Shown here piece after piece: positions 4,365 through 31,891 of a DNA stretch of 32,000 nucleotides; position 1 is the first letter of the stretch; each line of letters begins with the position of its first letter. The stretch spans positions 2,700,001 through 2,732,000 of the forward strand of contig NC_016803.1 in NCBI RefSeq assembly GCF_000189295.2, written 5' to 3'. The position numbers and the translations under genes were made by a program. The notes beneath the pieces were generated by a model. It was not told the DNA's origin. It made no database searches and saw only the letters and a list, made by a program, of their open reading frames with translations. The DNA comes from Pseudodesulfovibrio mercurii. Its GTDB lineage: Bacteria; Desulfobacterota; Desulfovibrionia; Desulfovibrionales; Desulfovibrionaceae.

Positions 4365-4380
4365 TGGCACGCAACTTGCT
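4365..4380 (+). promoter_or_regulatory. canonical sigma-54 (RpoN) promoter
   Basis: TGGCACGCAACTTGCT matches TGGCACG-N4-TTGCW at every conserved position. The GC of the -12 element lies ~40 nt upstream of ATG 4419. Confidence 0.8.
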
Positions 4381-4418
4381 TTGATTATTTGCGGGCATAC
4401 GGCCCGCAAGGTGGCAAA

Positions 4419-6368
4419 ATGTATAACGAAGCTCTGACCAATAGCGGCACCGGCGACATCCTGCCGTTCCACGCGCCCTACCTGACCGATGCCGACCCGG
4501 CCTCGGCCCGGCGGTACCTGGCCCGCGGCGACCTGTCCGAGGCGGCCTGGGTCCTGCGCAACGCGCTGCGGGCCGATCCGGCGGACCAAGACGCCCGTGC
4601 GCTGCTCGCCCGGTGCGCCGAGGCCCCGGCAGCGGGCGCGCCGCGCGGCGTGTTCGTGGGCGGCACGGGCCGGTCCGGGACCAGCCTGCTCCGGCGGGCG
4701 CTCGACTCCACCCCGGACGTGGCCTCGATCCCCGGCGAAACCAAGTGCATCCTGGACGAACGGTTCCGCCTGGCGCCGCATTGGTTCCACGCATTGCCCG
4801 GGAGCGCCCGGACCGCCGGGGTCGAGACCCTGAAGGCCCTGTGGCGCGAGCGGTTCTACTGCTACATCCATCCGGTCAAGGCCTCCCTCAAGGACGACCG
4901 GAGGCGGGGCTTCTGCCTGTGGCTGGACCGTCGGGAACTGGACCGCGAGCTCGGCCGCCTGGACGCCCTGCCGCAGGCCCGGACCCTGCGCGAGACGGAG
5001 GCGGTCTGGGGCGAGCTGTACGCGGCCCTGTTCGACCGCCGGGCCCTGGCCCGGGGCAAGCCGCTGTGGGTCGAGAAGACCCCCCGGAACAGCTGGTTCG
5101 CCGACTACCTGTACTCGATCATGCCGGGCATGAAGCTGGTCAACGTGGTCCGCGACGGGCGCGACGTGGCCCTGTCCATGCAGACGGTGTCCTGGGGCGA
5201 GAAGGACCTGGCCAAGGCCCTGGACTGGTGGGCGGACGAACTGGCCGCGACCGTGCGGGTCCTGGACACCCTGCCCGAAGGCTCGGTCCTGACCGTGCGC
5301 TACGAGGACCTGGTCACGGAGCCGGACAGGGTCATGACCGACATCGCCGATTTTCTCCACGTCTCTCCGGAGTTCGGTCTGGACATCTTTTCGAGTTCCG
5401 TGGGCCGTTGGAAACGGGAGCTGCCCGGTCCGCTCCAGGCCCGCGCCCTGGAGCGCCACAGGCCGCTGCTCGAACGGTTCGGCTACGACGTGTCCGGGCG
5501 CGTGTACGCCGTGTCCTCCGTCCCGGAAGCGCCCAGCTTCGACATGAAGAAGCGCAACGACGGCACCCGTTACCTGGCGGACCTGGTCCTGCCCCTGCAA
5601 AGGCAGCTCACGTGCGTGACCATGAGCGAGGTGGCCGAGGAGACCCGGCCGTGCTTCTTCCTGCGCCACGACGTGGACGCGGACCTGGACGCGGCCATGG
5701 AGATGGCCCGGCTCGAACACGGGCACGGCATCCGGGCGAGCTATTTCCTGCTGCCCCCGAGCCCGGCCGACGGTCCGGCCAATTACTACGGGGTCATCAG
5801 GGACGGCGGGCTGGTCGCGGACCCGGCCCTTCTGGACCGCGCCCGGCAGTTGCGGGAGTGGGGGCACGAGGTCGGGCTGCACAACAACATCGCGGAGCTG
5901 GCGGTCTGTTTCGGCCGCGATGTGGCCGAGGTCCTGGCCGAGCAGGTGGCCTTTTTCCGGGAGGGCGGCGTCGAGCTGGCCGGTTCCTCGGCCCACGGCG
6001 GGTCGTTCTTCCACCGGAACGAATTCGTCAGCTTCGAGATCTTCGACGAAGGGGGCGTCAAGCCGGGCATGGAGCGCGGCCGGACGATTCACATCGAGGG
6101 CTACGCATTGCGGCTGCACGCCCTCAGGCAGGCGGATTTCGGCTTCGCCTACGAGGCGTATTCCCTGCCCTACGGGATCGGGCTGAACGATTCCAACGGA
6201 CGGTGGGGCGGCAAGCTGGCGCGCACGTCCCCGCATCCGGAACTGAACGAACTTTCGGGAGAGCGGTTCCTGGCCGCCTTCCGCGAGATGGTCGCCGCCG
6301 CCCGGCCGGACCGGGGCGTGAACACCCTCCAGGTGCTGATCCACCCCGATCATTGGTGCATCTGCTGA
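4419..6368 (+). CDS. TPR-like / sulfotransferase / polysaccharide-deacetylase-like fusion protein
   Basis: ATG 4419 has RBS AAGGTGG (the track ORF starts at TTG 4389). PAPS-binding motifs: VFVGGTGRSGTSLL (5'-PSB) and NVVRDGRDVALS (3'-PB), plus WVEKTPRN. The C-terminal ~250 aa (FFLRHDVDADLD...GIRASYFLL...GHEVGLHNN) look like a deacetylase/CE4-type fold. Confidence 0.75.
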   Translation: MYNEALTNSGTGDILPFHAPYLTDADPASARRYLARGDLSEAAWVLRNALRADPADQDARALLARCAEAPAAGAPRGVFVGGTGRSGTSLLRRALDSTPDVASIPGETKCILDERFRLAPHWFHALPGSARTAGVETLKALWRERFYCYIHPVKASLKDDRRRGFCLWLDRRELDRELGRLDALPQARTLRETEAVWGELYAALFDRRALARGKPLWVEKTPRNSWFADYLYSIMPGMKLVNVVRDGRDVALSMQTVSWGEKDLAKALDWWADELAATVRVLDTLPEGSVLTVRYEDLVTEPDRVMTDIADFLHVSPEFGLDIFSSSVGRWKRELPGPLQARALERHRPLLERFGYDVSGRVYAVSSVPEAPSFDMKKRNDGTRYLADLVLPLQRQLTCVTMSEVAEETRPCFFLRHDVDADLDAAMEMARLEHGHGIRASYFLLPPSPADGPANYYGVIRDGGLVADPALLDRARQLREWGHEVGLHNNIAELAVCFGRDVAEVLAEQVAFFREGGVELAGSSAHGGSFFHRNEFVSFEIFDEGGVKPGMERGRTIHIEGYALRLHALRQADFGFAYEAYSLPYGIGLNDSNGRWGGKLARTSPHPELNELSGERFLAAFREMVAAARPDRGVNTLQVLIHPDHWCIC

Positions 6369-24090: not shown

Positions 24091-25332
24091 TCATCCGCGC
24101 TTCGCCGGGCCGTTTCCTTTTCGCACCCATTCGTCGATCTTGCGCTGCGACTCCGGGGAGGGCAGGGCGTTGCAGGCCAGGAAGAACTGGTTGACGTAGG
24201 CGGTCCGGCCCGTCCGTTTCAGTTCCAGCGTGCCCCGTTCCGGCTTCATGACCCGGTATATCCAGCTGGTCCCGGCCAGGACGTCCTCGGCGTAATGCAC
24301 CACGCAGTGGCTGAGTTCCTCGCCCTCCCGTTTCAGGTCCCGGTAATTGTCGATGTACCGGATCGCGGCGTCACCGGGGATGACCGGCGGCGGGAAGCGG
24401 ACGTTGGGAACGCGTTCGTTCTCCAGTTTTTCCTCCAGTCGGCGGGACCACCGGTCGTGCAGTGCGCCCAGGGTTTCGAGGTCCGGGGCCCGCTTCAGCC
24501 TGGCGTACGGGTCGGCAAGGCCGAGGGCCGCGCCGAAGCGCATGGCGTCCCGGTAGGTTGCGGCCGTTTTCTGCGCCAGGCCGACGCGGAAGGGGGATCG
24601 GCCGAACAGGGCGCGGACGGCGTTGAGCTCCACGGCCTCGGGGTGGCGGAGGAACGGCCCGAGGCCGGGCAGGGGGCAGGCGGCGCAATGCCGCAGCGCC
24701 CTGGCGAGCCGGGCGCTGCCGAGGAAGACGGTGAGCACCTCGTGGTCGTGCGGCGTGAAGCGGCAGCCCGTGATCTTGCGGATCAGGTTCTTCGTCACCC
24801 CCGAGTCCTCGCCGAAAACGGCCGCGACGATCCGGTTCTGTCTTTGCCCCAGCAGCTCGGCAGCGGCTTCGGGCGCGAGGTTTCCCCGCCCCATATGGAC
24901 CGCCAGCAGCCAGGTGAGGACCGGGGCCGTCCGGAGCGCCTGCAACCCGTAGGGGCTGAGGCGGAGCAGCCGGAGCACCGAATACTGCATGTAGGTGAAC
25001 GGCTCCACCGCGGCCCGGTACGGCCGGGGTATGGCCCGCAGGAAATAGTCCGACTTGTAGCAGTCGCTGAAGTGGCGCGGCGACACCAGCGTGAGGTCGG
25101 GGACGGCCTCCGGCGGCCGCCAGGCCATGGCGGCGTTTGCGGGCCCGGCCGCCCCGGCCGGGGGCAGGCCGGGCAGCCGGAGCTGGACGGGGCCGACGGC
25201 CACGGGTTCGCGCCGTTCCAGGACAAGGCCCTGTTCCCACGGCGTGATTCGGTATTCCCCGCCTCCCCTTCGGAAAAAGAGATGATCGGGCCATTCCGGG
25301 CGCCGGGTGATCGAGTTGTTGTCTATGCGCAT
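24091..25332 (-). CDS. PcfJ-like domain protein (function unknown)
   Basis: C-terminal LKREGEELSHCVVHYAEDVLAGTSWIYRVMKPERGTLELK matches my recollection of the PcfJ-like signature (EG..M.HCV..Y...G...Y....R.T.E). GGAGCGGAG RBS. Starts 35 nt after the activator stop. Confidence 0.6.
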   Translation of the reverse strand: MRIDNNSITRRPEWPDHLFFRRGGGEYRITPWEQGLVLERREPVAVGPVQLRLPGLPPAGAAGPANAAMAWRPPEAVPDLTLVSPRHFSDCYKSDYFLRAIPRPYRAAVEPFTYMQYSVLRLLRLSPYGLQALRTAPVLTWLLAVHMGRGNLAPEAAAELLGQRQNRIVAAVFGEDSGVTKNLIRKITGCRFTPHDHEVLTVFLGSARLARALRHCAACPLPGLGPFLRHPEAVELNAVRALFGRSPFRVGLAQKTAATYRDAMRFGAALGLADPYARLKRAPDLETLGALHDRWSRRLEEKLENERVPNVRFPPPVIPGDAAIRYIDNYRDLKREGEELSHCVVHYAEDVLAGTSWIYRVMKPERGTLELKRTGRTAYVNQFFLACNALPSPESQRKIDEWVRKGNGPAKRG

Positions 25333-25366
25333 GCAGGTCGGTTCTCCGCTCCGGATGGCCCGCCCG

Positions 25367-26944
25367 TCATTCCCGGTAGTCCGGCGGCAGGGGCAGGGTG
25401 CGCCGCAAGGCGCTGGCGGAAGTGCCGTTGTCGCGCAGCCACTGGGTGAAGGCGATGGCCCCGCGCTTGTCGTCCGGGGCGTAGAACCCGAGGAGGGAGC
25501 CCGCGGCGTTGGCGCGCCCCTGGGTCCGGCGCATGGCCAGCCCGACGAGTTCGATCACCACCGCGAATCCGTACCGCTTGGCGAGCTCCCGGTAGTGCGG
25601 CGTTTCCCGCTGTCTTTCGCGGGCGGCCCGGATGCGCCCGTAGAGTCCCTCGGCCAGGGACGCCCGGTCCGCACCGGGCGGGCACGACGGGCCGAGCCGG
25701 TCCTGCGCCGGGCGCGGATTCCCGGCCAGGTGCGGAAACAGGGCCGGGGTGTCGATGACGCACACGCCGTGTTCGTCCGCCTCGTGGGCCACCAGGTTGG
25801 CGGCCTGGCGCAGGGTGTTGTCCAGCTCCCGGATGTTCTCCTTCCATTCGGCCGAGACGAGCCGTCGCTGGGCGTCGGCGGTCAGCCGGTAGCGGCCGAA
25901 TGGCCGCTGGTCGAGGAAGTCCCGGGCGAAATCGGGGATGTCCTCCCGCCGTTCCCGCAGCGGGGGGACCATGACCACGTTCTGGCAGATGCGGCTCCTG
26001 AAGTCGGCCCGCCACCGGCCGGTCCGGACCAGCTCGTCGATGTCCTGGTTGGTGCCGTAGATGATGCGGATGTCGGGGCGGGCCAGGCGCGACGATCCGA
26101 GCGGGTAGAAGACCCGGTCCGTGAGAAAGGAGAGGAGCTTGACCTGGAACAGGGGGGTGGTGTCCCCGATCTCGTCCAGGAAGACGGTTCCGGTGTCCGC
26201 CTGCATGAATTTCCCGGCAAAGTCCCGGACCGCTCCGGTGAAGGCCCCCCGCATGTAGCCGAACAGTTCGCTTTCTACCATGCCGTCCGGCACGGCCCCG
26301 GCGTTGACCACGACAAAGGGGCCGTTTTGGCGGGGACTCTGCTCGTGGAGGGTCCGGGCGAGAAAGGTCTTGCCCACGCCCGGCTCGCCGACGAGGAGGA
26401 GGCTGTCGTCCGTCCGGGCGATGTTGGCCAGGAAACGGAAGAGCCGGTGCATGACCGGTGCGGACGACCGCAGCCCGCCCCACTGGCGCAGGGGTTGGCT
26501 GATGGCCGTGTAGACGGGCGGCCGCCCGGCGGGGGCGGGCTCGGCCCCGCGGAGGGCGAGCTCCCGCCGGACCAGGCCGATCCGGGCGGCTTCGGCCAGG
26601 CCGTGGTGGAGGTCGCTCGGGACAAAGACGGCCCGGCCCCGGCGGAGGGCCTTCACGACGGCGCGCGGCGGGTTGTAGCCGGACGGGCCCGAAAGGATGA
26701 TCCGGCGACCGCCGCCGGGCGCGCACAGCCGGGCCAGCGTGCGGTCGTCCGGTCCCTGCCGCCCGTTGCCGCCGCCGACCTCGATGATGAGCAGCACCGG
26801 CCCTGCCGGACCGGAAGGCGCAAGCGCGGCCTGGTCCGGCCCGTGCGCCGGGACGGACGCGCCCAGGCCCGGCTCAATGCGTTCGAGCACGTCGCGCCAG
26901 GTGTCGGCAAAGTCGTATGTGTCGCTTATGATGGCAATGTGCAT
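25367..26944 (-). CDS. sigma-54-dependent transcriptional activator (bEBP) with atypical N-terminal region
   Basis: LLLVGEPGVGKTFLARTLH (Walker A), ESELFGYMRGAFTGA (GAFTGA loop), GTVFLDEIG (Walker B), PLRERREDI. C-terminal Fis-type HTH-like segment (RRTQGRANAAGSLLGF). I chose ATG 26944 (MHIAIISD...) within track ORF 25367..27133. Confidence 0.85.
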   Translation of the reverse strand: MHIAIISDTYDFADTWRDVLERIEPGLGASVPAHGPDQAALAPSGPAGPVLLIIEVGGGNGRQGPDDRTLARLCAPGGGRRIILSGPSGYNPPRAVVKALRRGRAVFVPSDLHHGLAEAARIGLVRRELALRGAEPAPAGRPPVYTAISQPLRQWGGLRSSAPVMHRLFRFLANIARTDDSLLLVGEPGVGKTFLARTLHEQSPRQNGPFVVVNAGAVPDGMVESELFGYMRGAFTGAVRDFAGKFMQADTGTVFLDEIGDTTPLFQVKLLSFLTDRVFYPLGSSRLARPDIRIIYGTNQDIDELVRTGRWRADFRSRICQNVVMVPPLRERREDIPDFARDFLDQRPFGRYRLTADAQRRLVSAEWKENIRELDNTLRQAANLVAHEADEHGVCVIDTPALFPHLAGNPRPAQDRLGPSCPPGADRASLAEGLYGRIRAARERQRETPHYRELAKRYGFAVVIELVGLAMRRTQGRANAAGSLLGFYAPDDKRGAIAFTQWLRDNGTSASALRRTLPLPPDYRE

Positions 26945-26970
26945 GGGGTCGCTCTGGTTGTCCCCCCTTT

Positions 26971-26987
26971 TACAAGGTGCGTGCCAG
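26971..26987 (-). promoter_or_regulatory. sigma-54-like promoter candidate upstream of the activator gene
   Basis: Minus strand reads CTGGCACGCACCTTGTA. The -24 element (CTGGCACG) is perfect and the spacing is correct, but the -12 element reads TTGT rather than TTGC. An AT-rich tract (27011-27040) lies just upstream. Confidence 0.35.
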
Positions 26988-27240
26988 GCGAAGGATGCCG
27001 CATGCCCGCTCCAATATGCTGAAATAAAAACAATATCAGAGGCGACGAACTGTGGGGGCGTGGGGCCTGGGCTCACACGGGCCGCGCCCTCCTCACAGGC
27101 GGTCCGTGTCTCGCGCCGGTCGGCCTTCACCAAGAAAAAACTTGCACGCTTTTCCGCCGCAAAACGGAGATGTTGTCGGCGCTCTCTTTAATATTAATTA
27201 ATACGGCATGTTGCAAAAGAATTTCTGCGGCTGCGCATGT

Positions 27241-27256
27241 TGGCACTTCATTTGAA
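27241..27256 (+). promoter_or_regulatory. sigma-54-like promoter candidate pointing into the non-coding spacer
   Basis: TGGCACTTCATTTGAA: perfect TGGCAC, correct spacing, -12 element TTGA instead of TTGC. An AT-rich tract (27186-27206) lies ~40 bp upstream. Confidence 0.3.
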
Positions 27257-27690
27257 AGAGGTGGATCGGGCCGGAGGAACCCCAGGCTTTATTGCCGAGA
27301 ATCACCTCCATGGGCGTGAAGCCGCCGGTGCGGTTTTCATCAATCCCGGATGGCCCACGGGTTCGCCGAGGCGGCCCCGTGACGGGATCGGCCTTGGGGC
27401 TTCGCGAAGCCCCGGACAGGTCGCCGCTGAAACGCGGGAGGAGTCAAGGCTCTGGCCGACGCCCGAAACAGCTCGCACCATTTCCATGGCCACACGTGGC
27501 GATTTCCGGCCCGCCGGATGCGCGGCTCGGGTTCGAGCCGCCGATATGAACCGGCGGCGGGCCAGGAAGGCATGGTGAAAACGGTGGGAGATGGCCGCCA
27601 TCGGACTGTCCGTGGCGGCCGACGCCTACACCGGAAGGCCTCGTGAAACGGCCTCCCGCATCGACGTGATGCGGGAGGCCTTGTGCGTCG
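27257..27690. other. hairpin-dense GC-rich non-coding spacer
   Basis: Perfect stems read directly: GGGGCTTCGCGAAGCCCC (27396-27413), GCGGCTCG-ggtt-CGAGCCGC (27522-41), GGCCGCCA-12 nt-TGGCGGCC (27593-27620) and GGCCTCCCGCATC-gacgt-GATGCGGGAGGCC (27650-80). ORFs here are Arg/Pro/Gly-rich, have lower GC3 than real genes, and lack an RBS. Confidence 0.5.
27650..27680 (-). terminator. 13-bp perfect hairpin downstream of the vWA gene (probable operon terminator, weak U-tract)
   Basis: 26 nt past the stop at 27706. On the minus strand the stem is followed by GTTTCAC. Confidence 0.5.
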
Positions 27691-27705
27691 GGCGGCCGGG
27701 ACGGC

Positions 27706-30700
27706 TCACCAGGCCAGGGCGAACTTCTCGACAAGCCGCCCGAACCGGGCCACGGCCTCGCCGTAGGGCAGGGTGCTGAGGTCGAAGTACTGCTTGAAGC
27801 TCGGCTCCTGGATGGGCTCCACGGCCACCTGGACGCAGTTGATGCCCCAACGGCTCTCCAACTCGTCCACCAGGCCGGTGAGGGAGGCCGGGCAGCATCC
27901 GTCGGTCGGCTGGCCGTCGCTGATCATGATGAGCAGCCGGTTCCTTTTTCGGCTCTGTTGGGCCAGGCGGGCCGCATAGTGGAGGGCCCCGCAATCGTTG
28001 TTGCCGCCGCCCGCCTGGAGCATGGCGATGGCGTGGCGTCGGAAGTCGCCGAGATCGTAGAGGGTTTCGTCGTCAAAGGCGTGGATGTGGCCGGTGATCC
28101 CCGGCAGGTCCTTCAGGGCTTCCGCGAGGAGCACGCCGAAGGAGCGCGCGAGTCCCATCCCCCTGCCGCACATGGAGCCGGACCGGTCGATGAGCAGCCC
28201 CACATAGGCGTCGGGATAGATGCGGACCTCGCGATTGATGAACAACCCGGTGCCGGGATGGAGCATGGACCGGCGCAGCCCCTGGGGATCGATCCGCTGG
28301 CCCCTGCGCGACTGCCTGTCCTCGACGACGCCGGTCCCGGCCCTTTCCATGAATGCCCTGAGGGGCCGGACGTACTGCCGCACCCTGCGCAGCTCGTTGT
28401 TCTGGGCGGCGGGATTCCGGTTCATGGGGACCACCCGGTCCAGCGGGGTGAAGCCGAGCCCGCCGGACAGGGGACGCGGCCTCGCCGGAGAGGTCTTCCG
28501 GAAATCGGGCGGCGCGGTGCGCCGGGGCAGGGAGCGGGACACGTCGCCCCGTTTCGCGCTGCCGTCGTCCTCCAGTATCTCCGGGAGATGGCCGCCCACC
28601 TCGTTCAGCCGCTTCAGGGTGGCGTCCAGCGCCGGGAGGATGCGGCGGAGCCGCCTGAGTATCTCGGCGATCTCGTTGTCCGTTGATGGTTCGAGTTCCA
28701 GGATCTCCCGTATCCTGATCGCCAGGTGGACCATCCGTGGGTGGCCGAGATTCCGGAACGTCGGCGGGATCTGGGCCAGGGCCCGGCGCACCGCGGCGTC
28801 CGCGGGCCGGTCCTCGACCGAGAACCCCGCGCGCAGGGCGAAGAAGAAGGCGAGCATCCTGCTTACGGTTCCGCCGAGCTGAACCTGCTCCCGGTGGGTC
28901 AGCCGGACCATCCGTCCCTCCAGGCGGCCTTCGAGCCTGCCGTCCTCGAAGTCCCGGCGCAACGAGTCCGGCGTCCGGTCCAGGGCCCGCGCCAGGTCGT
29001 CCAAGGGCACGGCGTTCCCGGGAAGCTCGGCAAAGACGTAGGTCAGGGTCCGGTCGAGGACCGCGCCGAAGGCGTCTCGTCTGCTCCGGAGGCGACGCTC
29101 CATCCGTTCGTCCATGAGGATGTCATACAGTTCTGTCACGCCCTGCCGCCGCGCCTGCCCCCTGGCGCTTCTGGCCCCTTTCGCGCCGATGTCGAAGACG
29201 TGATGTCCGATTTCGTGGAGGAGTATGCCTTTGACGACGGCCTCGCCCTGCGGGTGCCCGGAGGCTATGGGAAGGCTGCTCACCTCGATCCGCATGGGGC
29301 CGTCGGCCGAAGCCACGGTCCGGCCGATGCCGGTCCGGTACTGGGTTATTTCCGTTCCCCGGCCGGTCAATTCATAGCCGGTCCGGGCCGCCCACGCGTA
29401 GGCCCTGGAGAGGGCGGCCAGCCTGTCGGCGACCCAGACCGCCCTCCGAACGGGCGTCCAGTTCTCCATGAAGCCGGGCTGCCGGGGTTCCGTCAGCAGG
29501 AGGCGTTCCGCGTACTCCCGCACCTCCGGGGACGGATCGCCGAGGGCGTCGAGCAATTCGTTGGCGCACCGGGGGTCGTCCACGAACGAGAGCATGGTCA
29601 GGGCCATGGCGCGGACCTCTTCGCGGTCCTTTCTGGCGAACGCGATCAGGTGGGGAACGGCCTCGGGATCGTCCAGGATGGCGTAAAGGCAGCGCAGGGT
29701 GTCGCACCCGGCGAGACACATGCCCGGCAGGGGGCTCAACCGGGCGATCCGCTCACCGATCAGGGTGCTGTCGATATGCCTGATGGCGGCCATCCGCAGG
29801 TGCGAACCGGGCATCAGGTAGCGGGTGACAAGCGGGGCAAACTCGGCGTAATCCGTGGCCAGGTGATAGAGCAGGCGCAGTTCCAGCGTCTCCTCCATGC
29901 TGTCTTCGAGCCCCATGGTCAGCTTTTCCGAGAACAGGAGGGCCACGTCTATCAGGAGATGGGGGCACGTCACCTCCAGCACCGCCCAGAGGAAAAACCC
30001 GGTCTCTTCGTTGACCATGGCCCGCTCCTCGGCCCGGACGATCAGCTCCACCACCTTCCTTTCCGAAAAGTCGCGCATGAACCGGGCGAGCTCGGCGAAC
30101 AGTTTCGTCTCATCCTTGTCCAGCTTCCACAGGGGGGAGTCGAAAAGGGCGGTGTCGAACGGACCCGCGTATTCCGGAAGCAGGGCGAGGTTGAGAACGG
30201 CGTTGGCGTAGTCTATGGATTGGTCTTCGGACGCGCCGCCGTCGGGAGGGGGGCCTCCGGCGTTGCGCATCGCCTCCAACCGCCGGAGGGAAAGCCGCAC
30301 CGCGTCCTCCGGCGCTCTTCTCCTGAGCAGGTGCAGGGCCATGGAGGGGGTTCGTTCGATCTCCCGGCGCACGTCGGCCGAGATGCGGGGATTGGCCGCG
30401 CCGAACTCCCAGGCCGCGCCGAGAAACTCGACGAGTTCCTCCTGGTCCAGTTCGTCGTCGACCGCTTCGCCGGTGCGGGGCAATCCCTCATTCCAGCGGG
30501 CCATGGCCCGCAGCATGCCGCCCGCCGCTCCGGGGTCGTCCTTTGCCGCCCGCATGGCCAGCTCGAAGGAGACCTGGCCGCGTTCCGCAAGGTGTTCGAT
30601 CATCTCCCCGCCGACCGCGGGCGACCAGTCGAAGACCGTCCGCACCCGTTCCCAGTCCGAGGCGGGACACAGCGTCCCGCCCAGGCTCTCGACCAGTTCC

Positions 30701-30744
30701 TCCGCCTTGCGGCGGGCCATCCGTTCGGGGTTCACCGTGGCCAT
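27706..30744 (-). CDS. 1012-aa multidomain protein: N-terminal helical region with HEAT-like repeats, HExxH zincin motif, C-terminal vWA (MIDAS) domain
   Basis: Real part of track ORF 27706..31887. ATG 30744 lies 2 nt after the AAA+ stop, with GGAGGG in the AAA+ gene tail. HEAT-like repeats: DDPEAVPHLIAFARKDREEVRAMALTML..DDPRCANELLDALGDPSPEVREYAERLL (aa ~355-416). Zincin motif: GILLHEIGHHVF (aa 507-518, nt 29203-29217). MIDAS: LLIDRSGSM...AGGGNND...IMISDGQPTD (aa 850-948). Confidence 0.85.
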   Translation of the reverse strand: MATVNPERMARRKAEELVESLGGTLCPASDWERVRTVFDWSPAVGGEMIEHLAERGQVSFELAMRAAKDDPGAAGGMLRAMARWNEGLPRTGEAVDDELDQEELVEFLGAAWEFGAANPRISADVRREIERTPSMALHLLRRRAPEDAVRLSLRRLEAMRNAGGPPPDGGASEDQSIDYANAVLNLALLPEYAGPFDTALFDSPLWKLDKDETKLFAELARFMRDFSERKVVELIVRAEERAMVNEETGFFLWAVLEVTCPHLLIDVALLFSEKLTMGLEDSMEETLELRLLYHLATDYAEFAPLVTRYLMPGSHLRMAAIRHIDSTLIGERIARLSPLPGMCLAGCDTLRCLYAILDDPEAVPHLIAFARKDREEVRAMALTMLSFVDDPRCANELLDALGDPSPEVREYAERLLLTEPRQPGFMENWTPVRRAVWVADRLAALSRAYAWAARTGYELTGRGTEITQYRTGIGRTVASADGPMRIEVSSLPIASGHPQGEAVVKGILLHEIGHHVFDIGAKGARSARGQARRQGVTELYDILMDERMERRLRSRRDAFGAVLDRTLTYVFAELPGNAVPLDDLARALDRTPDSLRRDFEDGRLEGRLEGRMVRLTHREQVQLGGTVSRMLAFFFALRAGFSVEDRPADAAVRRALAQIPPTFRNLGHPRMVHLAIRIREILELEPSTDNEIAEILRRLRRILPALDATLKRLNEVGGHLPEILEDDGSAKRGDVSRSLPRRTAPPDFRKTSPARPRPLSGGLGFTPLDRVVPMNRNPAAQNNELRRVRQYVRPLRAFMERAGTGVVEDRQSRRGQRIDPQGLRRSMLHPGTGLFINREVRIYPDAYVGLLIDRSGSMCGRGMGLARSFGVLLAEALKDLPGITGHIHAFDDETLYDLGDFRRHAIAMLQAGGGNNDCGALHYAARLAQQSRKRNRLLIMISDGQPTDGCCPASLTGLVDELESRWGINCVQVAVEPIQEPSFKQYFDLSTLPYGEAVARFGRLVEKFALAW

Positions 30745-30746
30745 GG

Positions 30747-31835
30747 TCAACCCTCCAGCGTCCTGTTGGCCCTGAGCCAGACCATGCCGGCATCGCTGCC
30801 CGGGTCGTCCCAGCGCCCCTGATACCGCGCGCAGAACGAATCCTTCAGTATCTCGGGGAGCGGGTCCCCCGGAAACTCGTGCCGGTAGATCGGGTGGGAC
30901 AGGAGCAGGCACGCCTCCTGGGTGGCGCGCATGCTCAGGTCCAGGTCGAGGTCCCGGTCGGTGCGGATGGCCTCGGCGACCTTGACGACCCGGCGGATTT
31001 CCCGGAGCGGGACATCGGGATAGGTCCGGGAGAGGAGCCGGGCCTCGGCTTCGGGCGGCGGGTAGTCCACCTTGAGGGGCGCAAAACGGTCGAGTTGGGC
31101 CGGATCGACCGCCGTGGTCCCCGTGAACTGGGCGCCGTTGTTGATGGCCGCTATCCACTGCACGTTCTCGGGAATGGGGATGAACTCGCCGTTGACCGGG
31201 TTGAACATCTTGCGGGTTGCGTCCAGTGCGGACATGACCCCGTTGCGGGCCATTTCCCGGCAGCGGTTGAACTCGTCCAGGAAGATCAGGAAGCGTTCGT
31301 TGCTTTCCGCCGCCTCGGTGAGCGCCCTGAGAATGTCCGTCTCCACCCAGGTGAAGGTCCGCTTGCTTTGGTCCTCGGCCGGTTGCAGGCTGGCCAGGAA
31401 ATCCGTGGGGTCGTAGACCGCGCTGCAGTTGAAGAAGATGAAGCGGACGCCCAGGCTTTCCGCGACCTTGCGGGCGAGGACCGTCTTGCCCGATCCCTGG
31501 GGGCCGTCCAGCAGGATGCTCATGCGGTTTTCGAGCAGGACCTCCAGCTTGCGCAGGAGTGCTTCCGGGAAGAAGAAGTCGTCGCCGCCGAAGCGGGCCT
31601 CGCTGAAGTGGCGGACCTCGATGTAGCCCCGGCTGGAACGGGGCCTGCCCTTGATCCGGGTGACCCGGACCCGGCACGGACTGCCCGGAACGATCGCCTG
31701 GTCGTTGCTGAGTATCACCTTCGGCGCGCGCCTGTTGCCGATGTTTTTCGCCCTGAAGCGCCACGGGCCCTGTTTCGGGTTGAGGTGGAAGACCGTGGTG
31801 AATATGCCGGGCAGCCCGGCGTTGTCGTTTGTCAT
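30747..31835 (-). CDS. MoxR/AAA_5-class AAA+ ATPase with ~85-aa basic N-terminal extension
   Basis: LLDGPQGSGKT (Walker A), RFLIFLDEFNR (Walker B), WIAAINNG (sensor 1), VDPAQLDRF (Arg). GGAGA RBS before ATG 31835. Confidence 0.85.
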   Translation of the reverse strand: MTNDNAGLPGIFTTVFHLNPKQGPWRFRAKNIGNRRAPKVILSNDQAIVPGSPCRVRVTRIKGRPRSSRGYIEVRHFSEARFGGDDFFFPEALLRKLEVLLENRMSILLDGPQGSGKTVLARKVAESLGVRFIFFNCSAVYDPTDFLASLQPAEDQSKRTFTWVETDILRALTEAAESNERFLIFLDEFNRCREMARNGVMSALDATRKMFNPVNGEFIPIPENVQWIAAINNGAQFTGTTAVDPAQLDRFAPLKVDYPPPEAEARLLSRTYPDVPLREIRRVVKVAEAIRTDRDLDLDLSMRATQEACLLLSHPIYRHEFPGDPLPEILKDSFCARYQGRWDDPGSDAGMVWLRANRTLEG

Positions 31836-31875
31836 GCTCGTCTCCGATTGGTTGTGCGTGTTTTACGGCTCGCCG

Positions 31876-31891
31876 AGCAAAGTGCATTCCT
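31876..31891 (-). promoter_or_regulatory. sigma-54-like promoter candidate upstream of the AAA+/vWA operon
   Basis: Minus strand reads AGGAATGCACTTTGCT. It has GG-N10-GC spacing and a consensus TTTGCT -12 element, but a weak -24 element beyond the GG. It lies ~42 nt upstream of the ATG. An AT-rich tract (31921-31947) lies ~30-55 bp upstream. Confidence 0.35.

Follow-up and report, generated by a model that had tools for sequence, protein, structure and literature searches.

What does a MoxR-class AAA+ ATPase do together with a large von Willebrand factor A (vWA) protein when no recognisable client gene lies beside them? This question is raised by two adjacent minus-strand genes at positions 27706-31835 of a 32,000-nucleotide (nt) stretch of the Pseudodesulfovibrio mercurii genome (contig NC_016803.1, positions 2,700,001 to 2,732,000), which we refer to as the window. 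An initial annotation, made from the sequence alone, had read them as a tightly coupled, self-contained ATPase/vWA module and as a candidate undescribed system. Our comparison of about 80 homologous loci shows that the ATPase gene and the gene of its partner, here called the adaptor, are co-inherited as a pair and that no third gene is conserved with them. Moreover, in the predicted structure the order of parts in the C-terminal 580 residues of the adaptor matches that of CobT. We lean towards the interpretation that the pair is a motor-adaptor of the CobS/CobT (MoxR-vWA) type which acts as an ATP-driven remodel-and-cleave machine.

The arrangement given in the initial annotation can be read directly in the sequence, including the 2-nt gap between the genes and the ribosome-binding site of the downstream gene, which falls within the end of the ATPase gene:

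30747-31835, minus strand: AAA_5 (MoxR-class) ATPase, the motor subunit, 362 amino acids (aa), read from the sequence and Pfam
30751-30756, minus strand: ribosome-binding site GGAGGG of the adaptor gene, within the 3' end of the ATPase gene and 6 nt before the ATG, read from the sequence
27706-30744, minus strand: adaptor, 1012 aa, with HEAT arm, zincin-like domain, linker, shaft and vWA/MIDAS domain, from sequence, Pfam, HMMER and an AlphaFold2 (AF2) model

The junction reads TGA-CC-ATG, with the stop codon at 30747-30749 and the start codon at 30742-30744, and overlaps or gaps of at most 15 nt are common among homologous pairs. A 1393-aa open reading frame (ORF) at 27706-31887 was rejected as a high-GC artefact that crosses the ATPase gene out of frame, and translation of the adaptor begins at the ATG at 30744.

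The ATPase is a MoxR-class AAA+ protein with every catalytic AAA+ motif. It reaches 48.6 bits against Pfam AAA_5 (cut-off 22), and the motifs GPQGSGKT, FLIFLDEFNR and DPAQLDRF named in the initial annotation are all present. Conservation was assessed in 32 homologues from several phyla (alignment A5):

31482-31505, minus strand: Walker A, GPQGSGKT (K117); G111-T118 invariant except S115
31266-31289, minus strand: Walker B, LIFLDEFN (D187/E188); D187, E188 and N190 invariant
31551-31835, minus strand: N-terminal domain, residues 1-95, strongly conserved

Sensor 1 (N232/N233) and the arginine finger of DPAQLDRF (R250) are likewise invariant. The alignment as a whole is unusually conserved (mean column identity 73%), and this includes the N-terminal domain, whose consensus reads FETVFYxNPKKxSPFRFRA...PKVILCND.RIQPGQLCRVRV...RGHIEVEFL. 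Residues 1-95 match no family in Pfam, NCBIfam, PHROG or the PDB. More than 1000 proteins are homologous to it at 55-62% identity; they come from Planctomycetota, Myxococcota and Kiritimatiellia, among others. The best PDB profile matches are the AAA modules of Midasin/Rea1 (1.5e-25), followed by NorQ (7e-9) and CbbQ (3e-4); CobS is absent from the PDB profile matches at 1e-6, and no CobS family model is among the 25 NCBIfam matches listed for the ATPase.

The adaptor has Pfam matches above cut-off to HEAT_2, CobT_C (24.4 bits, cut-off 21) and VWA. Its AF2 model was built on 73 family members, which are 24-39% identical overall to the window protein and in which conservation was also counted. 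The model and the alignment divide the protein as follows:

29455-30744, minus strand: variable N-terminal alpha-solenoid (HEAT) arm, residues 1-430, from AF2 and HEAT_2 at 357-414
28675-29454, minus strand: zincin-like (CobT_N / M48C-like) domain, residues 431-690, from AF2 and Foldseek against BFVD
29203-29217, minus strand: HExxH site H510-E511-I-G-H514, followed by H515 (LLHEIGHH), from conservation
29086-29112, minus strand: 'Glu helix' D545-E546-R-M-E549-R550-R-L-R553 (ILxDERxER), from conservation
28450-28674, minus strand: flexible linker, residues 691-765, with a predicted local distance difference test score (pLDDT) of 39-69
28210-28449, minus strand: beta0-alpha0 extension and beta-hairpin 'shaft/finger', residues 766-845, from AF2 at high confidence
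27709-28209, minus strand: vWA domain, residues 846-1012, with MIDAS residues D853-x-S855-x-S857, N916/D917 and D943, from conservation

The pLDDT exceeds 90 over most of residues 360-1012, except in the linker at about 690-765. The HEAT arm is all-helical in the model, with a pLDDT of about 50-70 up to residue 350. Mean identity to the homologues follows the same division: 17% for residues 1-350, 32% for the central domain, 20% for the linker and 51% for the vWA domain. Ahead of the conserved module, homologues have anything between almost no residues and about 1200 aa. At the other end of the protein, the C-terminal vWA domain with its complete MIDAS (DRSGS, GGGNND, SDGQPTD) is present as first described, the MIDAS residues are invariant, and the chain ends in W1012, an invariant or near-invariant Trp. 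The shaft region is predicted to consist of a short strand and a long helix (770-802) followed by a hairpin (804-842) with a helix (820-828) at its tip. In Foldseek searches of the PDB, the vWA domain matched best to that of NorD as solved in NorQD complexes (E 5e-7) and to the MIDAS domains of Rea1/MDN1. PDB profile searches with the full-length adaptor alignment were dominated by HEAT and alphaRep proteins, so that naturally short members (A4) were used instead; the best PDB profile match of this HEAT-less part was CobT (2e-4).

The central domain carries the protease motif LLHEIGHH that the initial annotation had pointed out, and several lines of evidence bear on whether it is a metal site. 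H510 and E511 are each conserved in 72 of the 73 sequences, H514 in all 73 and H515 in 71. In the second motif, D545 (72/73), E546 (71/73), E549 (72/73) and R550 (73/73) are equally well kept. Such a near-invariant HExxH...DExxER arrangement across sequences with so little overall identity argues for a functional metal site. The model of residues 425-725 (pLDDT 90.7) comprises a helix alpha-1, a three-stranded sheet, the HExxH helix and a helical bundle; the strands lie at 464-488, the HExxH helix at 500-517, and a helix at 537-555 bears D545, E546 and E549. This is the layout expected of zincins, with the HExxH helix after a small sheet and an acidic ligand on a second helix. The Glu-helix motif is a probable source of the third metal ligand, and the adaptor is, judged from these residues, probably a working metallopeptidase. 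In Foldseek searches of BFVD, in which the query did not contain the vWA domain, the matches of the zincin-like domain (E 1e-4 to 1e-2, TMq 0.42-0.47) fell on the N-terminal portion of phage proteins that are 570-780 aa long and labelled 'VWFA' or 'CobT-like', including proteins of Haloarcula tailed viruses and gp56 of Brevibacterium phage Cantare. Overall, the profile and structure searches bore out the AAA_5, VWA and CobT_C assignments and a NorD-like vWA fold, and they yielded no significant match to a peptidase family: the zincin-like domain has no Pfam match even at E<=10 and no sequence match in the PDB. Membership of the DUF2201-type metallopeptidase-vWA proteins was rejected on the same grounds, there being no Pfam metallopeptidase match at E<=10. 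We had taken this family to be a candidate, and its motif after the HExxH is presumably different from that of the adaptor.

The adaptor family came to light only in a sensitive search. A word-indexed homologue search with the whole adaptor returned the adaptor itself and nothing else, and in the same kind of search a profile built from 6 adaptor sequences returned mostly HEAT proteins unrelated to it. When 1.84 billion representatives were scanned in full with HMMER, 852 adaptor relatives were identified, with 330 cluster representatives at E<1e-30, and all of them match from residue ~360-440 through 1012. We collected 80 loci through the adaptor and 9 through the ATPase; 76 loci were informative for pairing. 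An ATPase gene lies at most 250 nt from the adaptor gene in 59 of the 76 and at 0.3-6 kb in 8 more, so that the pair co-occurs within 6 kb in 67 loci, the co-occurrence across genomes that the initial annotation had proposed to check. De novo clustering of the flanking ORFs recovered only the two families of the pair as conserved (in 81 and 66 loci), and the next real family was found in 11 loci. Since no third gene is conserved in about 80 loci, the pair represents a self-contained two-gene module in variable contexts, as had been suggested from the single locus.

The family occurs mainly in metagenome-assembled genomes (MAGs) of Myxococcota and Planctomycetota. All named database relatives that we saw come from MAGs, and P. 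mercurii is the sole isolate that we found to carry the pair. Two subfamilies can be distinguished. In the window-like subfamily, the ATPases are 53-60% identical to that of the window and the gene order is ATPase then adaptor. The second, mainly from Myxococcota and Planctomycetota, has an ATPase identity of 45-51%, adaptors of about 1650-1800 aa and the reversed gene order. Both subfamilies are represented in one Deltaproteobacteria MAG (GCA_006226375.1), by a single pair each on separate contigs (L001, L079), and in a Myxococcota locus (L040, 231-11665) two adaptor genes encoding proteins of about 1700 aa flank a single ATPase gene. The nearest relatives of the P. mercurii ATPase and adaptor are 62% and 41% identical, respectively. 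They lie in other phyla, which points to horizontal acquisition.

In the mechanism that we envisage, by analogy with the cryo-EM structures of CobST and NorQD, the ATPase would assemble as a hexamer whose pore is entered by the adaptor shaft, and the zincin-like domain and the conserved C-terminus would dock on the ATPase ring. ATP hydrolysis would then twist or stretch the adaptor. The HEAT arm and the MIDAS would bind a protein target, the motor would remodel the adaptor-target complex, and the zincin site would cut either the target or the adaptor itself. The fast-evolving HEAT arm is probably the part that holds the target protein, and the target is not encoded beside the pair.

Several findings weigh against this remodel-and-cleave mechanism or against the setting in which we place it. 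In nine of the 76 loci, no ATPase gene was found in the 10-kb flanks of a full-length adaptor gene (L017, L019, L021, L028, L046, L067, L073, L074 and L082). The PDB matches of the zincin-like domain in Foldseek are weak (selecase, abylysin, snapalysin and BlaR1, E 0.7-2.2), and the role of the domain could be no more than structural docking, as in CobT, with metal binding but without proteolysis. The ATPase is nearer to Midasin and NorQ than to the solved CobS, and details of CobST may therefore not transfer to it. Furthermore, PADLOC-DB 2.0 returned only short P-loop and HEAT matches (E 5e-6 or weaker) and no defence model. The gene content of the flanks was not set against the genomic background, and many flanks consist of ordinary metabolic genes, so that their content is suggestive only.

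These last two points bear most directly on a related explanation, in which the pair is an immune system against phages or other mobile genetic elements: the HEAT arm would sense an invader protein, the MoxR motor would activate the metalloprotease, and an invader or host protein would be destroyed, leading to abortive infection. The module is self-contained, patchily distributed and apparently horizontally transferred, and its putative sensor arm evolves fast beside a conserved catalytic core. The concentration in Myxococcota and Planctomycetota is shared with the vWA-MoxR conflict systems (PMC7159879), and one MAG contains two divergent pairs. In addition, the flanks of 13 window-like loci contain transposases, helix-turn-helix plus M78 (capP/capH-like) pairs, CHAT-TPR proteins, Macro, ADP-ribosylglycohydrolase and RNA ligase genes as well as ResIII and SNF2 helicases. 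However, the PADLOC matches are generic and the flanks uncalibrated, as stated above, the pair lacks the additional 'effector' component of the ternary systems described so far, and the window copy is chromosomal and located among core genes such as enolase and FolD, with no integrase or other defence gene around it. We consider an immune function of this kind somewhat unlikely. From the patchy distribution and the variable, partly mobile or defence-like surroundings, we infer that a role in conflict or stress is likelier than the maturation of one housekeeping enzyme, and a defence role of the pair is possible. The more specific proposal that the two proteins form an ATP-gated protease of a new kind, devoted to immunity or surveillance, in which the rapidly diversifying HEAT arm captures a foreign or damaged protein and the pull of the MoxR motor on the shaft activates a CobT_N-type metalloprotease, is in our view unlikely. 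In one homologous locus (L004, 15662-18807), the pair is followed downstream by a ThiF (E1-like) gene, an AAA_2/AAA_5 ATPase gene and small ORFs, a set reminiscent of ubiquitin-like conjugation or defence modules.

The characterised pairs of the MoxR-vWA class all work as dedicated maturation or metal-insertion chaperones, such as CobST for CobN, NorQD for NOR and CbbQO for Rubisco. The pair could accordingly serve a client encoded elsewhere; the zincin-like domain would then be used for docking only, and the HEAT arm would provide the surface that binds the client. CobT_N itself has an M48C-like fold for which no protease role is stated (10.64898/2026.07.21.739949). In the CobSTN complex, the alpha-solenoid domain VI of CobN forms the largest CobT-contacting surface and lies near the CobT MIDAS (10.64898/2026.07.21.739949), so that a fused solenoid could be a built-in client interface. 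On the other hand, no client gene is conserved beside the pair. No nor or cbb genes adjoin it in the window or are conserved across the homologous loci, and cob genes are neither present in the window nor conserved in these loci (CobN elsewhere in the genome was not searched for). The absence of an adjacent nor, cbb or cob client, as first noted for the window, is matched by the lack of a conserved one across the family, and no metalloenzyme or cofactor operon accompanies the homologous pairs consistently. Moreover, among isolates the pair is seen only in P. mercurii, and a client can therefore not be a core enzyme of the Desulfovibrionaceae. The near-invariant HExxH...E site argues for catalysis, and a relative annotated as CobT has lost the HExxH. 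The adaptor scores 19.5 bits against the NCBIfam CobT equivalog TIGR01651, far from its cut-off of 759. A dedicated chaperone thus appears distinctly unlikely to us.

The regulatory and neighbouring parts first assigned to the pair did not hold up. A sigma-54-like -24/-12 element had been taken as a sign of a regulated operon:

31877-31891, minus strand: sigma-54-like -24/-12 match AGGAATGCACTTTGC, with 3 mismatches to TGGCACG-N4-TTGC; not supported as a functional part

At this stringency of 3 mismatches, the window contains 104 sites compared with 119 +/- 10 in shuffled sequences, and no enrichment over random windows was found upstream of 66 homologous pairs. The element at 31877-31891 is therefore a weak match, no better than chance and not conserved in homologues, and sigma-54 control was rejected as a trait of the family and is not supported for the window pair. 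Likewise, the bacterial enhancer-binding protein (bEBP) and the PcfJ-like gene had been suspected to be associated parts. The PcfJ-like gene co-occurs with the pair in none of the other homologous loci, and plasmid homologues of PcfJ are not found near CobST-like genes. A bEBP lies within 10 kb of the pair in only about 8 loci, which looks like chance and is expected in bEBP-rich genomes. In the absence of co-occurrence, both were ruled out as components of the system and are neighbours of the pair in the window.

The bEBP and PcfJ-like genes may instead form a sigma-54-dependent operon of their own. A one-mismatch sigma-54 site, TGGCACGCACCTTGT, lies at 26972-26986 on the minus strand. Some 28 nt downstream of it, an in-frame ATG at 26944 (MHIAIISD...) is probably the true start of the bEBP. 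The bEBP has an intact GAFTGA motif, and the PcfJ-like gene follows after a 34-nt gap (25332-25367). Between the adaptor and bEBP genes, a stretch of about 760 nt (26945-27705) contains no convincing ORF and no Rfam match; on its plus strand, a sigma-54-like site with two mismatches lies at 27241-27255. Elsewhere in the window, a perfect sigma-54 consensus, TGGCACGCAACTTGC, is located at 4365-4379 on the plus strand, 10 nt upstream of a sulfotransferase gene (4389-6368). This gene heads a plus-strand cluster with a cytidylyltransferase, a metallophosphoesterase, an ATP-grasp enzyme and a radical SAM/SPASM enzyme. As a match to the consensus, TGGCACGCAACTTGC is a far better sigma-54 candidate than the element upstream of the pair.

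At the downstream end of the pair, the 13-bp hairpin described in the initial annotation is real:

27650-27680, minus strand: GC-rich hairpin GGCCUCCCGCAUC-ACGUC-GAUGCGGGAGGCC with a 13-bp stem, 26 nt past the adaptor stop codon, from folding

The 71-nt stretch that contains it (27640-27710) folds with -40.9 kcal/mol (z = -4.96), and none of 200 shuffled sequences was as stable. Its U-tract is weak, with only GUUUC behind the stem, and the hairpin is not among the predictions of a simple terminator scan. It is likely to be a terminator or a stabiliser. An Rfam scan of the whole window gave no match. In the window, the pair is surrounded by core genes for enolase, FolD and pyrimidine synthesis and by a sugar-modification cluster. 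Upstream, a divergent gene just outside the window encodes a 74-aa zinc-ribbon-like protein with two CxxC pairs, 289 bp from the ATPase gene (L090, 551-775); about 1 kb further upstream of the pair, only a small zinc-ribbon gene and one gene without family assignment are present.

Pairs with a similar adaptor are also carried by phages and plasmids. A MoxR ATPase paired with a metallopeptidase-vWA protein has been noted in phages and jumbo phages (PMC7824862, Iyer et al. 2021), and CobS/CobT-like pairs of phages have been described (PMC8651126, Liu et al. 2021). The proposed functions are hijacking of the host CobN (PMC8651126) or virion assembly (PMC7824862). The two motifs of the zincin-like domain can be compared directly:

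Window adaptor: LLHEIGHH...YDILMDERMER
Cantare gp56: YHELCH...GILEDQRIE
Bacteroides phage BS162P1: VHEGCH...NILEDERIE
Conjugative plasmid pAsa4c: AHEAAH...NILEDCRIE

In Cantare (gp55/56) and BS162P1, the adaptor gene directly follows a gene for an AAA_5 ATPase of 340-400 aa, within replication or nucleotide-metabolism modules. On pAsa4c, which has a MOBH relaxase, a 598-aa 'VWA domain-containing protein' (L108, 5900-7696) has an intact HExxH...ILEDCRIE and a Q/G-rich linker; its gene lies beside bet/exo, about 4.7 kb downstream of a gene for a 322-aa AAA ATPase. A search of PLSDB with the vWA domain matched 816 plasmid records, 790 of them conjugative, in which the motif was read only in pAsa4c; among the E. 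coli matches, at least some represent YehP, which is unrelated. A 'cobalamin biosynthesis protein CobT' of Caballeronia pNK83 (L107, 3239-4879) has lost the HExxH (LAARH) and kept ILEDRRVCE. Its gene adjoins an AAA ATPase gene, and no cob genes are listed in the ±4-kb stretch around it. Judged from these motifs, the protein may belong to the same superfamily as a degenerate member and not be a true CobT.

The window pair might accordingly be a domesticated CobS/CobT-like pair of a phage or conjugative element, which would, for example, support DNA replication or recombination or manipulate the cobalamin or nucleotide supply of the host. An adaptor with HExxH...ILxDxRxE, linker and vWA domain adjoins a CobS-like ATPase in phage replication and nucleotide modules, the pAsa4c adaptor gene lies near bet/exo, and the best PHROG match of the window ATPase is phrog_249, the phage CobS-like 'porphyrin biosynthesis' family (1.9e-21). 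Nevertheless, the likeness is remote. Identity to the window adaptor is 24-31% and confined to the vWA domain, and the zincin-like domains match at the level of the fold only. An hhalign comparison of the vWA part gave a probability of 96% with BS162P1 and 3% with Cantare gp56, and a comparison of the BS162P1 adaptor with the PDB, aimed at an alignment with CobT_N, was uninformative. There are no close relatives of the pair in IMG/VR, INPHARED or PLSDB, and the mobile-element versions lack the HEAT arm. Domestication is very improbable as an explanation of the pair.

The motor-adaptor that we favour belongs to a class, the MoxR-vWA pairs, which is among the most widespread AAA+ machines still lacking an assigned function. 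Compared with the design of CobS/CobT resolved by cryo-EM, the family has two additions, a protease that is apparently active and a recognition arm that varies, and it thus offers a concrete test of whether MoxR-type motors can gate proteolysis instead of metal insertion. P. mercurii ND132 is cultured and the sole isolate found with the pair, so that its function can be tested there directly; a search of the literature for expression or fitness data of this strain returned nothing relevant on these genes. Moreover, proteins annotated as 'cobalamin biosynthesis CobT', as phage 'peptidase' or 'porphyrin biosynthesis' and as plasmid 'VWA domain protein' appear to form one superfamily that shares the HExxH...ILxDxRxE domain, which suggests that, on mobile elements, the annotations 'CobT' and 'porphyrin biosynthesis' mislead in many cases. 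If the pair were indeed an immune or surveillance protease, CobT and the 'CobT-like' proteins of phages and plasmids would be relatives of an ancestral MoxR-driven protease family, and CobT would be a catalytically dead derivative of it.

Among the characterised systems, cobaltochelatase provides the closest match in layout. CobT consists of an M48C-like N domain, a disordered linker of about 90 residues, a beta0-alpha0 extension, a shaft and a vWA domain, and its shaft (Q373-R413) enters the CobS ring just ahead of the MIDAS at D422 (10.64898/2026.07.21.739949). Our pair likewise combines an AAA_5 ATPase with an adaptor in which the order of parts in the C-terminal 580 aa is identical, and the predicted shaft directly precedes the MIDAS at D853. 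In contrast to CobT, the adaptor has an additional HEAT arm of 430 aa and an intact HExxH site. We exclude that the pair is a cobaltochelatase, given the score far below the CobT equivalog cut-off, the lack of a CobS model among the listed matches of the ATPase and the absence of cob genes nearby.

In NorQD, a finger of the vWA domain penetrates the pore of the hexamer, and the C-terminus of NorD contacts the ring (PMC13036017). The fold of the adaptor vWA domain is closest to NorD, NorQ is the second-best PDB relative of the ATPase, and a finger before the MIDAS and a conserved C-terminus are also found in the adaptor. By this analogy, we infer that the hairpin and the C-terminal Trp fit the finger and C-terminus pattern of NorQD. 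NorD, however, has neither a zincin domain nor a HEAT arm, and the pair is not NorQD or CbbQO because client genes are not adjacent.

The CobS/CobT-like pairs of mobile elements share the HExxH...ILxDxRxE motifs, a low-complexity linker, a C-terminal vWA domain and a fold-level zincin match with the window adaptor, together with an ATPase gene of the AAA_5 type (320-400 aa) that is adjacent in the two phages and about 4.7 kb away on pAsa4c. They differ in their shorter adaptors of 550-780 aa. The four vWA-MoxR ternary conflict systems (VMAP, iSTAND, FtsH and beta-propeller; PMC7159879, Kaur et al. 2020) have the same core of MoxR and vWA proteins and the same bias towards Myxococcota and Planctomycetota, and their vWA protein can be fused to repeats (HEAT) and occasionally to a metallopeptidase. 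Unlike the window pair, they are defined by a third component, and their vWA domain is N-terminal, with effector or repeat domains at the C-terminal side. The adaptor contains no beta-propeller or STAND domain, and these systems were excluded since conservation is limited to two gene families and the adaptor carries its vWA domain at the C-terminus. The E. coli YehL-YehM-YehP-YehQ system was also rejected (BLASTP against YehL, E = 1.0; hhalign against YehM, 0.1%; only generic vWA similarity to YehP).

Finally, the pair resembles Midasin/Rea1, whose AAA modules are the best PDB match of the ATPase and whose MIDAS domain matches the adaptor vWA domain, and both in their overall logic combine an AAA_5 ring with a helical region, a flexible linker and a MIDAS domain. 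Midasin differs in being a single chain of 4800-4900 aa with several AAA modules and gives no match through the zincin-like domain. As far as profile similarity can indicate, the ATPase/adaptor family may be among the closer prokaryotic relatives of the building blocks of Midasin. We found no description in the literature of a HEAT-fused chromosomal family with its highly conserved ATPase, and no family model exists for the central domain of the adaptor or the N-terminal domain of the ATPase. The initial view of an undescribed system thus has to be narrowed in the light of the phage pairs (PMC7824862, PMC8651126) and the architecture of CobT: the kind, a MoxR and vWA pair with a CobT-like adaptor and a metallopeptidase-like domain, is already known, whereas its HEAT-fused, chromosomally encoded cellular form appears to be undescribed.

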